Shown: piece after piece, positions 33,908 to 38,599 of the stretch
Position numbering within the stretch: position 1 is the stretch's first letter
Layout of the letters: each line of letters opens with the position of its first letter
Origin: an uncultured bacterium
GTDB taxonomy: Bacteria > Zixibacteria > MSB-5A5 > GN15 > FEB-12
Assembly (NCBI GenBank): GCA_965372795.1
Contig: CBDVDR010000012.1
Location: 32,001-96,000, forward strand
Reading direction: 5' to 3'
DNA: 64,000 nt
The notes under the pieces: generated by a model
Told to the model about the DNA's origin: nothing
The model's input: only the letters and a program-made list of their open reading frames with translations
Databases searched by the model: none
Made by a program: the position numbers and the translations under genes

Positions 33908-35806
33908 CTATGTTACTTTGTTCAATTCCTGAATAAAATCATCCGGCCCAATCACACCCTGAATCGTTTTTCTAACATTACCCTGAGAATCTAATATCAA
34001 TATCGTAGGCAGTGAATAATGTTTCATATTAAATTTTTTCATAAATATTTTTGTTTGAGGAGAATCCGCGGTTTCGAGTTGAGCTTTGATAGCCACGAAT
34101 CTTTTTGATTCCTGAATAACAGCCAGGTTGCTAAAGGTTTTCTTATCCAACACTTTACAATTTGCACACCAGGTTGCCCAGGTATCTATAATGACCGGCT
34201 TGTTTGTTTTTTTTGCCAGAGCTAAACCGGAATTAAGATCCTTTTCCCATTGAATTTTTTCTTTTTCTACCGCAGTTGTAGTTCCGGCAGGAAGGATTTC
34301 AGAAACAGGCGGAAGGATTAATCCTTCGGTTAAGATAACTCCCGCAATCAGATAAATACCAATCAATAAGGCTAATAGACCTATGAATTTTTTGAGTCTT
34401 AAAAAGAAACCTGCCTCCGGTGTTAAGCGATCAAGCCCACCTCCAAAGACACCAAACGCCAAGAGTAATAATCCGGTCAGTATGGCAACCAAAGTTACTG
34501 ATATAATTGTGCTTAGGAAATAAATAGCCATCAAGAGAAGAATAAATCCGAAGAATTTTTTAACCGTTTCCATCCAACCTCCGGAACCAGGCAATTGGTT
34601 CAAGGTCGAAGAGAATGTACCAATAATGATATATAAAGTACCTAGTCCCATCGCAAAGACAAAGAGTACAATAAATCCTATAAAAGGTGATCCACTGGTT
34701 GCAACATAAAGCAGAATACCGGCAACAAAAGGACCGACACATGGTGAAACAACTAAGGCTGCTATGACACCGAGGATAATTGATCCAAGAATACCTCCAT
34801 CACCTTTGGCTGCTGTGCCAAGTTTCTGCCTAAGTGACATGGGTACATTTAACTCATACACTCCGAACATCGAAAGCGAGAAGATAACAAAAACTATGGC
34901 AATACCAATTACAACGGGCGGGCTTGCCAGCCAGGCTCCGAAGACACCACCTACCAATGCGACAACTAATCCCATTAGACCATAAACTGTTGCCATTGAA
35001 CCAACATAGAATAGCGACAGGAAAAAACCTCGGCCAACCGAACGATTTTGACCTGCAAAGATACTAACTGTTATGGGAATCATTGGGTAGGTGCAGGGTG
35101 AAAAAGATAATACTAATCCGGTTACAAAGGCCAGTCCCAAGGCAATAAAATAGCCCCATATTCCATGTTTATCAATCAGTTGCTGAATTTCGTTATCGGC
35201 TACTGTAGTTGAGGCTACCTGAACCGGTTGATTCTCTTCTGTATTTAAAGAAGCAAATATTTCGGTGTGGGTCGGTACACCTTCCGGGCCGACAATTATT
35301 GCCAAAGAAGCTGTCAGAGATTCAGGGGCACGGCATTCTCTGTCATTACAAGGCTGGAAAGTCAATGTTACCGGAAGTTTATATTCGCCCGGGGTCAGAT
35401 TATTATCGATTGTAACATTAAAACTGAAAACTGCTTCACCGCTATATAATGAAAACTTGTCTTCTCCGACAAAACCATCCTCACCTTTTGGGTATTTCAC
35501 TGAATTGACTTTAATTCCTGAAATAGTAGCAAAATCTAATTTAGCGGCAATTAACCAATCTTCATAAGGAGCAGCAGAATTTATATGCCAGCCTTTAGAA
35601 ATGTCAGCAATCAGGACAGCCTTATAATTCCCACCCGGAGCAGCTTGAGATATTGAGAATAAAGATTTAACCTGAACCAGTTCTTCCTCATTTAAAAATG
35701 AAGAGCCACCAAATTCAAGATCTTGAGATAAGAGGGGTATTGAAATTAAAGAGAATATTAAACTGAATGTAATAGCAATACTGAATATTTTGAAACTTCT
35801 GGTCAT
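33908..35806 (-). CDS. dsbD: Thiol:disulfide interchange protein DsbD
   Basis: N-domain GWHIN...QPCNDREC, TM domain SPCTYPMIP and SPCVGP, C-terminal WATWCANC thioredoxin domain. Confidence 0.93.
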   Translation of the reverse strand: MTRSFKIFSIAITFSLIFSLISIPLLSQDLEFGGSSFLNEEELVQVKSLFSISQAAPGGNYKAVLIADISKGWHINSAAPYEDWLIAAKLDFATISGIKVNSVKYPKGEDGFVGEDKFSLYSGEAVFSFNVTIDNNLTPGEYKLPVTLTFQPCNDRECRAPESLTASLAIIVGPEGVPTHTEIFASLNTEENQPVQVASTTVADNEIQQLIDKHGIWGYFIALGLAFVTGLVLSFSPCTYPMIPITVSIFAGQNRSVGRGFFLSLFYVGSMATVYGLMGLVVALVGGVFGAWLASPPVVIGIAIVFVIFSLSMFGVYELNVPMSLRQKLGTAAKGDGGILGSIILGVIAALVVSPCVGPFVAGILLYVATSGSPFIGFIVLFVFAMGLGTLYIIIGTFSSTLNQLPGSGGWMETVKKFFGFILLLMAIYFLSTIISVTLVAILTGLLLLAFGVFGGGLDRLTPEAGFFLRLKKFIGLLALLIGIYLIAGVILTEGLILPPVSEILPAGTTTAVEKEKIQWEKDLNSGLALAKKTNKPVIIDTWATWCANCKVLDKKTFSNLAVIQESKRFVAIKAQLETADSPQTKIFMKKFNMKHYSLPTILILDSQGNVRKTIQGVIGPDDFIQELNKVT

Positions 35807-35865: not shown

Positions 35866-37083
35866 TTAAAAATTATTTTTTTGAGATTGAGCGATAATTT
35901 CCCGTTTTAATAAAACGAGTAATTTTTCGGTATCAATTTTTGCAGTAATTTTTTCCGCAATTTTTTCAGCTAAGTCTTTGGTGAATTGGCGTGTAAAAAT
36001 GCCCAGCTGGTCAGCAGTCATTTGTTCTAATTTTTCTTCCCAAGCCATTGACTTGTCTTCAACTGAAGGAGTTGTGTCAGTTTCTTTTAATAATATACTT
36101 TCCGGGGACTCAGTATGTATTTTTTCAACTTCCTTTTTAAACTCTTCAATAAAATGTTCGACACCCTCGTGTTTTTGATCTATCTGGGGTTGTTTGATCG
36201 GCGAGTCAGGTGCCGGGGTAACCGGGTCAATAATTTCTGAGTTGGCAGCAATATTCAGTTTTACTGATTTATTGCTAATATTTGAATTATCAGGCGCAGG
36301 ATCATTATTATCACTCTGCATAGAATTTATAAACCATTGATAATCATGATCAGCATCGGCGTCAGCATCATCTAAAGAATTGGATTCTACTAATCCGTAT
36401 TGATCAGAAAGAATATCGAGTTTTCCGGTTATATTTTTTGGATCGATATTCGATTGTTTTGTTCGCTGGACAATATCGGTACTATCTGCAGTGATAACTA
36501 CTGATTCAACTTTACCGCTATCTGAGGAATCGGTGTCTTCTTTTAAAATATGTGACATTCCAACCATTTTGTCGGCTGATTGTCTTTTCTCTAAATTAGG
36601 AAGAACGGTTTTATCCATAACTTCTGAATCGGTTACTTCAATTTGATCCAAACCTAAGGCAGCATCAAGGAATTCATCCTCCAGATCTGCCTCGGATAAA
36701 GGATTATTTTTAGCACTCTTCACTATTTCCTGTTGTGAAGTAATCTGAGTAACAGTTTCTATAAATCTTTTTGGATCCAATGGCAGCTCAATCTCGATTT
36801 CCTTTGGATAGTTAAAGGATATTTCATTTTGAGAGCTGAAAAGTAATTTTGGGATTGAACCGGTTTTAGCTTCCTTACAGAATCTTTCATAAAGGTACTG
36901 ATTTCCGCCGGATTTTATTTCAGAGCCAACAATAATCAAATCAGGATTAGTAAATTCAATGACTTCAAGGGCTTTTTCAGAGGTAGAAACCGAAATCACT
37001 TCATAACCATTTTGTCTTAAAACTGTTTCGGCAACACCACGGGTTGCATCGGATTCTTCAACTAATAAAACTCTTTTATGCAT
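35866..37083 (-). CDS. Atypical receiver-domain protein with long acidic linker and helical C-terminus
   Basis: VLLVEES...PDLIIVG receiver-like N-terminus; D/E/S-rich middle. Confidence 0.75.
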   Translation of the reverse strand: MHKRVLLVEESDATRGVAETVLRQNGYEVISVSTSEKALEVIEFTNPDLIIVGSEIKSGGNQYLYERFCKEAKTGSIPKLLFSSQNEISFNYPKEIEIELPLDPKRFIETVTQITSQQEIVKSAKNNPLSEADLEDEFLDAALGLDQIEVTDSEVMDKTVLPNLEKRQSADKMVGMSHILKEDTDSSDSGKVESVVITADSTDIVQRTKQSNIDPKNITGKLDILSDQYGLVESNSLDDADADADHDYQWFINSMQSDNNDPAPDNSNISNKSVKLNIAANSEIIDPVTPAPDSPIKQPQIDQKHEGVEHFIEEFKKEVEKIHTESPESILLKETDTTPSVEDKSMAWEEKLEQMTADQLGIFTRQFTKDLAEKIAEKITAKIDTEKLLVLLKREIIAQSQKNNF

Positions 37084-37085
37084 TG

Positions 37086-37904
37086 CTATTTATCTTTTTT
37101 TGAAAGTTCAGAAGATGCTTCTTCAAGTATTTTCCGTTCTGCTTTAGTCAATTTCTCAATACCATCTCTATTTATCTTATCGAGAATAGAATCAACTTTC
37201 TTCATCATATCTTCAGCATTTTGCCGGTTTTTTTCAAATTTTTTCTGTTGTTTCTTAAACTTCATACTTTTTAATTTTGAAGACAGAACTCCAAACCTTA
37301 GATCCGCTTTCAAATATAACAAAGCAAATAGAATTCCGCCTAAATGAGCCATATGGGCAATATTTGCTCCTGAGAATAAAAATCCAAGCAGCATCATACC
37401 GGGGACTGCCCATTTTACTTTGACTGGAAAAACAAAGTAAATATAAAGCATCCGATTAGGAAACATCATCCAATATGCGGTTAGGACGCCATAAATAGCA
37501 GCTGAGGCTCCAATTGTAGGGACATTTTGGTTCGTATGGACGATTAATGTAAGAATTGCTCCGGCTAAACCGGCTATAAAATAAAATCGACTAAAAGACT
37601 TACTTCCCCAGGTATGCTCAATTTCAGTTCCAAACATCCATAGAGCAAACATATTAAAGAATATATGTCCAAATCCGCCATGGAGAAACATGTAGGTGAA
37701 TGGTTGATATAAGAGGTTTGGGAAATCCGAAAAAAACAGAGCCGGCACTAAGCCAAGTTGTCTTGATAATCCGCTTATAAAAAACTGTATAACAAAAACC
37801 GCCACGTTTACAATAATCATTGCCTTAATAAATGGCGGTAAGTTTCCGGGTCCAAAACTTGGCCGGCGACTTCCAGAAAAGTTGTTAAAATTATTTTGTC
37901 TCAT
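37086..37904 (-). CDS. Rhomboid intramembrane serine protease
   Basis: FLHGGFGHIFFNM, GASAA and AHMAHLGG motifs; C-terminal VDSILDKI helix. Confidence 0.93.
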   Translation of the reverse strand: MRQNNFNNFSGSRRPSFGPGNLPPFIKAMIIVNVAVFVIQFFISGLSRQLGLVPALFFSDFPNLLYQPFTYMFLHGGFGHIFFNMFALWMFGTEIEHTWGSKSFSRFYFIAGLAGAILTLIVHTNQNVPTIGASAAIYGVLTAYWMMFPNRMLYIYFVFPVKVKWAVPGMMLLGFLFSGANIAHMAHLGGILFALLYLKADLRFGVLSSKLKSMKFKKQQKKFEKNRQNAEDMMKKVDSILDKINRDGIEKLTKAERKILEEASSELSKKDK

Positions 37905-37947: not shown

Positions 37948-38109
37948 CTACTCTTTGTCACTATTATCGTCATTTTTTTTATCTTCAGACTGAAGATGGT
38001 TGGGCGGAAGCGCTCAGCCACCGACTCCAAATTTTGGTAGAACCTTTTTTACCAAAAAGATCCAGACGACTATAAAGACTACTAAAAATATGATATCAAT
38101 AAAATCCAT
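37948..38109 (-). CDS. Small membrane protein with in-frame TGA (candidate selenoprotein, 53 aa)
   Basis: AAGGA RBS, ATG 38109, MDFIDIIFLVVFIVVWIFLVKKVLPKFGVGG-TGA(38016-38014)-ALPPNHLQSEDKKNDDNSDKE-TAG; SECIS-like hairpin 16 nt after the TGA. Confidence 0.65.
37981..37997 (-). promoter_or_regulatory. Putative bacterial SECIS element
   Basis: ATCTTC-AGTCT-GAAGAT hairpin with a G in the apex, in the coding frame just 3' of the TGA. Confidence 0.55.
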
Positions 38110-38225
38110 AAATCTTCCTTAAGTTAATCATTATTTTCTTATAATTCTACAAAAATACACTCATCAATAAAATAATTATTGGGAAGCAAATGTTCCAAAA
38201 ATATTGATAATTTCAATAAAAGCAC

Positions 38226-38254
38226 AAAAAAACCGGCTCAAATAATTGAGCCGG
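38226..38254 (-). terminator. Rho-independent terminator after trxA
   Basis: CCGGCTCAA/TTGAGCCGG stem followed by T7. Confidence 0.85.
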
Positions 38255-38275
38255 CTAAATTCAATTACTTCTTAT

Positions 38276-38599
38276 TTAAAGAATACCATCAATTTTTTGA
38301 GTTAATTGAGCTTTTGGAATAGCTCCCACTACCTGCTCCACCACTTCACCGTTCTTAAAGAAAAGCAGCGAAGGGATTGACATAATGTTGTACTTCCCAG
38401 CAGTTGCATTATTCGAGTCAACATCAAGTTTGGTAACTTTCACTTTATCACCATATTCTGAAGCAATTTCTTCAAGAATTGGGGCAATCATTTTACAGGG
38501 TCCACACCATGTAGCCCAGAAATCAACAATAACCGGTTTTTCAGATTGAAGAACTTCCTTTTCAAACGTGTCATCTGTTATGTTAATAGGTTGGCTCAT
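38276..38599 (-). CDS. trxA: Thioredoxin
   Basis: DFWATWCGPCK motif; 107 aa. Confidence 0.98.
   Translation of the reverse strand: MSQPINITDDTFEKEVLQSEKPVIVDFWATWCGPCKMIAPILEEIASEYGDKVKVTKLDVDSNNATAGKYNIMSIPSLLFFKNGEVVEQVVGAIPKAQLTQKIDGIL

Follow-up and report, generated by a model that had tools for sequence, protein, structure and literature searches.

The window analysed here is a stretch of 64,000 nucleotides from the genome of an uncultured Zixibacteria bacterium. On its reverse strand, between trxA and a gene for a rhomboid-family protease, lies an open reading frame (mini-ORF) of only 53 codons with an in-frame UGA at codon 32, which an earlier note on this DNA had put forward as the gene for a membrane-anchored selenoprotein. 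The features of the locus, ordered from 5' to 3' on the reverse strand, are listed below.

38276..38599, reverse strand: trxA, 107 aa (Pfam Thioredoxin, 123.4 bits), directly upstream of the mini-ORF and the likely reductant of its product
38231..38256, reverse strand: terminator-like hairpin after trxA, with an 11-bp stem (6 G-C pairs) and a T-run; a pattern match only
38150..38157, reverse strand: TATTTTTG, 41 nt 5' of the mini-ORF ATG, which we take to resemble the Bacteroidota -7 promoter element TAnnTTTG
38116..38120, reverse strand: Shine-Dalgarno-like AAGGA with a 6-nt spacer before the ATG; a resemblance to the consensus only
37948..38109, reverse strand: mini-ORF, probably selenocysteine (Sec) encoding, of 53 codons plus TAG, with its start ATG at 38109-38107 and the candidate UGA-Sec at codon 32
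38044..38097, reverse strand: hydrophobic, predicted transmembrane helix (codons 5-22) that contains the invariant Trp16 and has charges fitting an N-out/C-in orientation
38014..38016, reverse strand: UGA, probably read as Sec (residue 32), which ends a conserved LP-x-x-G-x-x-[TSG] loop and aligns to the invariant first Cys of the Cys-containing form of the family
37981..37997, reverse strand: SECIS-type hairpin ATCTTC-AGTCT-GAAGAT, which starts 16 nt past the UGA and overlaps codons 38-43
37086..37904, reverse strand: rhomboid-family protease gene, 272 aa (Pfam Rhomboid, 104.5 bits), starting 43 nt past the mini-ORF stop
35869..37083, reverse strand: 405-aa ORF between the rhomboid gene and dsbD, with a possible N-terminal response-regulator receiver domain (24.5 bits, below the cut-off of 30.2)
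33908..35806, reverse strand: gene for a DsbD-type membrane thiol:disulfide electron transporter (Pfam DsbD_TM, 190.5 bits, plus thioredoxin-like domains)

Sequence and translation both agree with the original description of the mini-ORF as a frame with an AAGGA motif, an ATG at 38109, a transmembrane helix, a TGA at codon 32 and 21 further codons, which end at a TAG (37950-37948). With the UGA read as Sec (U), the translation is MDFIDIIFLVVFIVVWIFLVKKVLPKFGVGGUALPPNHLQSEDKKNDDNSDKE. The gene is unannotated because gene callers halt at the UGA, leaving a stub of 31 aa. Acidic residues prevail among the first 6 of the protein (1.48 D/E to 0.25 K/R per sequence) and basic ones among the 12 from the helix to U (1.73 K/R to 0.01 D/E). 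Under the positive-inside rule, this distribution of charges would put the Sec on the cytoplasmic face, about 10 residues off the membrane, in a protein predicted to be single-pass with its N terminus out and its C terminus in. The tail past the Sec is probably acidic and disordered.

A profile search found carriers of the mini-ORF in 158 of 285 genomes of the phylum, distributed over six families and several orders, and 149 of the 150 phylum matches listed have the in-frame TGA. A search of 60 relatives with the peptide as query yielded 30 loci, every one of which had TGA at the aligned codon and a frame that stayed open beyond it. We inspected 80 loci residue by residue. After the removal of 11 duplicates, of one locus with the Sec position unresolved (L052) and of one without the TGA (L156), a set of 67 distinct orthologues remained, and the aligned codon was TGA in all 67. 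Homologues ending at this codon with TAA or TAG, which had been named beforehand as grounds for rejecting the selenoprotein proposal, were absent from this set. The excluded locus L156 (G033:C32:6277-7008, reverse strand), which is also the one listed phylum match that has no TGA, is a diverged second copy in which, by eye, Trp (TGG) occupies the Sec position and the later Cys and an L-P-G-E-D segment are retained; it may be a decaying paralogue.

Trp16, Pro25, Gly28 and the Sec column are invariant in the Sec-form alignment. A Cys follows the Sec in 49 of the 67 sequences, at U+5 in 44 (U-x4-C) and at U+6 in 5. Another 16 have no Cys within 8 residues past U, and these include the gene studied here, whose clade has lost the resolving Cys (U-A-L-P-P-N). 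Past the TGA, all 67 sequences keep the frame open for 17 codons or more, with a median of 25; frame +1, which is shut immediately in some sequences, has an even longer median (31 codons), and the open-frame test is therefore a weak one. The Sec form is also encoded in a genome titled Gemmatimonadota, where selA is present and the gene has U-x4-C and a hairpin with a GUC loop.

Homologues with Cys at the position of the Sec were recovered from a HMMER search of 1.84 billion representative proteins, which gave 278 matches. Among the best 150 of these, the residue at the Sec column is Cys in 79, W in 18 and S, G or R in 6; the other 47 are stubs that stop short of the TGA. The W-reading proteins presumably come from callers that translate TGA as Trp. 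The 79 proteins are the Cys-aligned homologues that the earlier note had proposed to look for, though the alignment of Sec with Cys is partly by construction, since the profile that recruited them carried Cys at that column. The Cys form has the motif W-x8-LP-x-x-G-[VI]-x-T-C-M-S-G-x-C, in which both Cys residues are invariant (alignment A3). When its profile was compared with that of the Sec form (alignment A1) by hhalign, the two matched with 99.5% probability (E = 3e-23), the Sec pairing with the first Cys and the Cys at U+5 with the second Cys of C-x4-C.

The inverted repeat ATCTTC-AGTCT-GAAGAT is present 16 nt past the TGA as described, and it is folded by RNAfold into a 7-bp stem with a GUC triloop; the corresponding loops in relatives of the mini-ORF are GGA, GGC or GGU. 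It had been argued that the hairpin is not a terminator, and this conclusion holds, as an A-run rather than a T-run follows the stem and the terminator scan left it unflagged. Significance in the single genome is another matter. By a loose criterion (a stem of at least 6 bp, a loop of 3-5 with G in its first two positions and a start 15-23 nt after the T of the TGA), a hairpin follows 5274 of the 154,602 TGA triplets in this genome (3.4%). The hairpin therefore exists, but against this background it is not significant alone in one genome. The stem-loop test used this criterion in place of the distance window of the published bSECIS model.

Evidence for the hairpin from one genome is thus weak, whereas the cross-genome comparison exceeds chance by far. 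We examined a rigid helix of 7 pairs in the 48 nt from the TGA in the 67 aligned sequences, with 500 shuffles and slid positions as controls. Pairing was found in 77.4% of the cells, compared with 62.3% in the shuffles, and 73 cells had changed on both sides of the pair, compared with 28.1 +/- 4.3 after shuffling, a value matched by 0 of the 500 shuffles. The covariation score was 0.387, against 0.170 for the shuffles and 0.08-0.22 for the slid controls. Stem variants among the relatives include CTTCC/GGAAG changed to CTCCC/GGGAG, CGTCC/GGACG and CACTC/GAGTG, among others. Where a Leu codon in the stem goes from CTT to CTC, the partner side goes from GAA to GGA, a Glu-to-Gly change, so the pairing is preserved at the expense of the amino acid. 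The sequence past the TGA and the hairpin within it, whose conservation the earlier note had proposed to check, are both conserved.

The decisive control for SECIS behaviour is the contrast between TGA genes and Cys genes. Of the 67 Sec genes, 45 have a positioned hairpin of at least 6 bp, compared with a single one of the 66 Cys-form genes; at a minimum of 5 bp the counts are 57/67 and 6/66, and at a minimum of 7 bp they are 29/67 and 0/66. Within these comparison sets, the Cys-form genes are more G+C-rich than the Sec genes. No relevant Rfam match covers the hairpin of the mini-ORF, the only row returned being Plastid-rpl20 (20.3 bits against 53, E = 1.4).

The source genome (98.65% complete, 69 contigs) encodes the complete Sec machinery. 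The four genes selA, selB, selC and selD had been named as a first check on the selenoprotein proposal, and all were found above their curated cut-offs: selA at 514 bits, selB at 324 bits, selD at 389 bits with an in-frame TGA of its own, and the tRNA-Sec gene selC at 68.9 bits against a gathering score of 47. The selD hairpin, with an 8-bp stem and a GGU loop, has the same architecture as that of the mini-ORF. In-frame TGA codons at redox-Cys positions were also found in genes for a thioredoxin-like protein (W-U-x-x-C), an AhpC/TSA peroxiredoxin (T-P-G-U), a DUF3179 protein (W-U-P-L-C) and a CMD/AhpD-like protein (C-x-x-U), and a weak Fe-S_biosyn candidate has one in the context G-Y-G-U. The hairpins of selD and of the thioredoxin-like, AhpC/TSA, DUF3179 and CMD genes have GGN or GUN loops at a distance like that in the mini-ORF; the hairpin starts 12 nt past the UGA in selD and 15-22 nt past the TGA in the other in-frame TGA genes. 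These in-frame TGA loci (L270-L274 and L001) are placed as follows.

G000 C1:118270-119163
G000 C2:208136-208633
G000 C16:37366-38457
G000 C31:672-1217
G000 C27:1247-1579
G000 C4:204093-205193

With at least five additional genes having an in-frame TGA at a redox-Cys position, the organism is selenoprotein-rich. Across the phylum, selA was matched at E <= 1e-50 in 264 of 285 genomes, including those of families without the mini-ORF, and it was above cut-off in 57 of 61 relatives; being nearly everywhere, it cannot discriminate as a test of co-occurrence. The selA match of one relative (G155:C64:9741-11075, forward strand) itself has an in-frame TGA.

The earlier proposal of a 53-aa membrane-anchored Sec protein is thus supported by the Sec machinery of the genome, the conserved TGA, the covarying hairpin and the Cys homologues. 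From these sequence comparisons, we are fairly confident that the mini-ORF is a true Sec-encoding gene for a membrane mini-protein.

The neighbourhood of the mini-ORF is one of thiol-redox genes, and Pfam matches confirm the trxA and dsbD that had been recognized there. A third gene offered as selenium-linked context, resembling TIGR04282 (33155-33538), scored 66.6 bits against a cut-off of 134 and adds nothing. The linkage to trxA is strong in the order to which this genome belongs, where the gene is directly upstream on the same strand at 46 of 48 loci, one of the two exceptions having an upstream flank of only 277 nt. It is found upstream at 6 of 14 loci from other orders and directly upstream at 18 of 80 Cys-form loci from metagenomes, although the short length of many of these prevents a judgement. 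The mini-protein is also fused to thioredoxin in two single ORFs with a full thioredoxin domain, L250:940-1425 (forward strand, 110.9 bits) and the protein P0047, and in both of these the fusion partner is the Cys form.

A rhomboid gene is directly downstream at 48 of 48 loci of the order, and an adjacent one was found at 0 of 14 loci from other orders and at 0 of 80 Cys-form loci. Because the terminator-like site immediately follows trxA, the mini-ORF may be transcribed together with the rhomboid gene and not in an operon with trxA. The nearest relatives of the rhomboid protein come from Candidatus Zixiibacteriota or Zixibacteria MAGs. It ends in a C-terminal DUF6576 domain (residues 233-265), which nearly all relatives listed also possess, and since Ser134 and His187 are invariant it looks catalytically active. 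Prediction of a complex between the rhomboid protein and the 31-aa N-terminal part of the mini-protein gave a score of 0.00, which speaks neither for nor against binding.

Elsewhere, the surroundings differ. In another Zixibacteria family (L176, L178-L180, L184 and L189) the order of genes is trxA, CoA_binding_2, a short ORF, the mini-selenoprotein and an OsmC-like gene, a gene content that speaks of peroxide defence and not of a link to rhomboid; in a further family an acyl-CoA dehydrogenase gene adjoins the Sec form. Around the Cys form, neighbours at 24 loci include YgaP-like membrane domains (7), Pyr_redox_2 proteins (5, one of them fused to rhodanese), DUF302 (3) and RND, HlyD or OEP efflux parts (4), and at 1 of the 24 a metallo-beta-lactamase/rhodanese protein occurs with a TauE sulfite exporter and a thioredoxin. 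Cytochrome bd-like proteins and anti-sigma factors are also found there. As the neighbours vary between lineages, they indicate no single partner or substrate. The Cys form accordingly resembles the Sec form in its architecture and motif, in having trxA 5' of it at part of its loci and in its thioredoxin fusions, and it differs in having Cys for Sec, other neighbours, a positioned hairpin in 1 of 66 genes and a rhomboid gene at none of 80 loci.

Two readings of the locus dispense with a functional selenoprotein, and both appear very improbable to us. Translation might simply end at UGA-32 to give a 31-aa membrane peptide, with the hairpin serving as an RNA stability or regulatory element and all conservation past the UGA acting at the RNA level. 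The 31-aa form is certainly what databases contain: in one search of public collections 9 of 12 matches stop just 5' of the TGA, as do the 47 stubs among the best 150 of 278 matches described above. It is also the case that the best-conserved codons past the UGA (L-P-x-x-D/E) overlap the hairpin. A genuine stop, however, would drift among TAA, TAG and TGA, where we find TGA in 67 of 67. The second Cys of C-x4-C, encoded past the UGA but before the hairpin loop, is retained by 49 of the 67 Sec forms and is invariant in Cys forms. Homology spans the UGA, and the hairpin goes with TGA genes and not with Cys genes (45/67 against 1/66). The other reading makes the mini-ORF a selenium-sensing leader, in which decoding of UGA-32 and melting of the hairpin would set the expression of the rhomboid gene and the peptide itself would be of minor importance. 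Its position directly 5' of that gene on the same strand at 48 of 48 loci of the order would suit such a role, as would the terminator-like site between trxA and the mini-ORF and the lack of one between the mini-ORF and the rhomboid gene. We give this idea equally little credence in view of the conservation of the peptide as a protein, with its transmembrane helix and invariant W16, P25 and G28, of the Cys-form homologues elsewhere that have neither UGA nor hairpin, and of the Sec forms in other Zixibacteria orders and in the Gemmatimonadota-titled genome that have no adjacent rhomboid gene by tblastn.

If the mini-ORF encodes a selenoprotein, as we favour, translation would start at the ATG at 38109, and the hairpin (37997-37981) would recruit SelB with Sec-tRNA(Sec) at UGA-32. 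Selenocysteine would be inserted there and decoding would run on to the TAG at 37948. The product would have a short acidic N terminus outside, one helix, and its LP-x-x-G-x-x-[TSG]-U loop on the cytoplasmic face. This topology, the linkage to trxA and the thioredoxin fusions together suggest a membrane-tethered selenol/thiol redox peptide recycled by thioredoxin, and we judge the chances of such a thioredoxin-coupled role to be about even. The tethered selenol would meet an oxidant, sulfur or metal species at the inner membrane surface, after which the thioredoxin encoded upstream would re-reduce it. Relatives outside the lineage have Cys for Sec and an invariant C-x4-C, and for this reason the ancestral chemistry is likely to have been a dithiol/disulfide couple, which would have become a selenol/selenenylsulfide couple in Sec forms. 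A selenenylsulfide cannot be the general mechanism, as 16 of the 67 Sec forms lack a Cys within 8 residues of U. In the clade without the resolving Cys, the Sec might be resolved directly by thioredoxin or by a second copy of the peptide.

A different function for the same selenoprotein, somewhat unlikely in our estimation, is that the Sec, with or without a Cys, acts as a ligand or carrier and not as an oxidoreductase recycled by thioredoxin. In this equally tentative scheme, it would bind or hand over its cargo at the membrane, be it sulfane sulfur, a persulfide, selenium itself, a soft metal or a metalloid. The 16 of 67 forms in which no resolving Cys accompanies the Sec would be at home in such a role, and the YgaP-like, Pyr_redox_2/rhodanese, TauE, DUF302 and efflux neighbours at the 24 Cys-form loci point in the same direction. 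Those contexts, however, come from Cys forms of other lineages and are heterogeneous and not de-duplicated, while the neighbours in Zixibacteria are trxA, rhomboid, DsbD and OsmC genes. The mini-protein itself matches no metal-binding or rhodanese family, and the fusions observed join it to thioredoxin. We therefore retain the thioredoxin-coupled redox peptide as the preferred account.

The textbook case of SelB/SECIS-dependent recoding of UGA in bacteria is fdhF of Escherichia coli. The mini-ORF resembles such cases in having a UGA with a short stem-loop 3' of it inside the coding sequence, a G-containing apical loop and a genome with selA to selD. It differs from them in that the whole frame is only 53 codons long, so that the SECIS-type element fills about one-third of the codons past the UGA, and in that its hairpin has no match to any Rfam model.

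A likeness in overall form may be found among eukaryotic proteins. According to the accessible text of one article (PMC13524514), SELENOS is a single-pass membrane protein with Sec in a disordered C-terminal segment, where it forms a selenylsulfide with a resolving Cys; it can be reduced in vitro by thioredoxin reductase 1, and derlin-1, of the rhomboid superfamily, is a well-established partner. The bacterial protein has a single predicted helix and, in the family, a U-x4-C tail, and its gene lies between those for thioredoxin (upstream) and a rhomboid (downstream), a likeness that is one of analogy only. Unlike that of SELENOS or SELENOK, the Sec of the mini-protein lies near the membrane and not at the extreme C terminus, and, unlike derlin, the bacterial rhomboid keeps its Ser and His and is linked to the mini-ORF in one order alone. 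Pfam scans (E up to 10 and up to 1) listed no SELENOS, SELENOK or other selenoprotein family. By this analogy, the mini-selenoprotein, the rhomboid and TrxA as reductant might form a bacterial counterpart of the SELENOS/SELENOK-derlin pairing, but we consider this improbable. If it were true, the selenol would be a redox-gated partner, adaptor or substrate of the rhomboid in membrane-protein quality control, and a protein of 53 residues would be among the smallest functional selenoproteins; the parallel, speculative as it is, would be relevant to the question of why selenium is used in membrane quality control.

Other short selenoprotein families provide a comparison within prokaryotes. In its accessible part, a 2026 review of the prokaryotic selenoproteome (PMC13188914) tabulates the CYCXC family and a dual CXXC motif small protein, which, as described there, are like the mini-protein in being short, in having Sec in place of a redox Cys and in having Cys homologues. 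The mini-protein differs from these families, as they appear in that part, in having U-x4-C in place of U-x2-C and in its predicted membrane anchor. It matched none of the NCBIfam or Pfam models named in the accessible text of PMC13188914, and the terms Zixibacteria, UxxxxC and transmembrane are absent from the same text. The portions available of the deep-Sep and BSepDB papers mention neither Zixibacteria nor membrane; the family Table S2 of BSepDB may bear on novelty, and the part of its supplement that was available shows that the genomes analysed there included some from Zixibacteria. The motifs CMSGAC and TCMSG were absent from the full-text literature searched. Against Pfam-A and NCBIfam release 20, the Sec form gave chance-level rows only (two queries, P0001 and the L033 protein), and the Cys form gave no match above cut-off (11 stand-alone queries). 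The lack of a match in Pfam-A or NCBIfam and the absence from the selenoprotein literature searched lead us to regard this as a new family of a well-known kind.

Bacterial selenoproteins have mostly been found by homology, and short ORFs cut by a UGA escape both gene calling and screens of that sort. The result here would be an unrecognised family that is present in over half of the sampled genomes of a candidate phylum and that public collections contain only as 31-aa stubs or mis-translated forms. A membrane-anchored U-x4-C mini-protein would join a catalogue dominated by soluble thioredoxin-fold enzymes. The same searches bring to light a widespread, unnamed Cys-form family tied to thioredoxin, which would offer a tractable entry in culturable organisms. 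For the Cys form, a weak lead (Atlas score 0.82) comes from a cluster that is commonest in Planctomycetota. Residues other than Cys or W at the Sec column of family members, which may be genuine variants, errors of sequencing or artefacts of gene calling, are R in P0003, P0107 and P0152, S in P0056 and P0069 and G in P0059 and P0089; Arg, Ser and Gly each have a codon one base from TGA.
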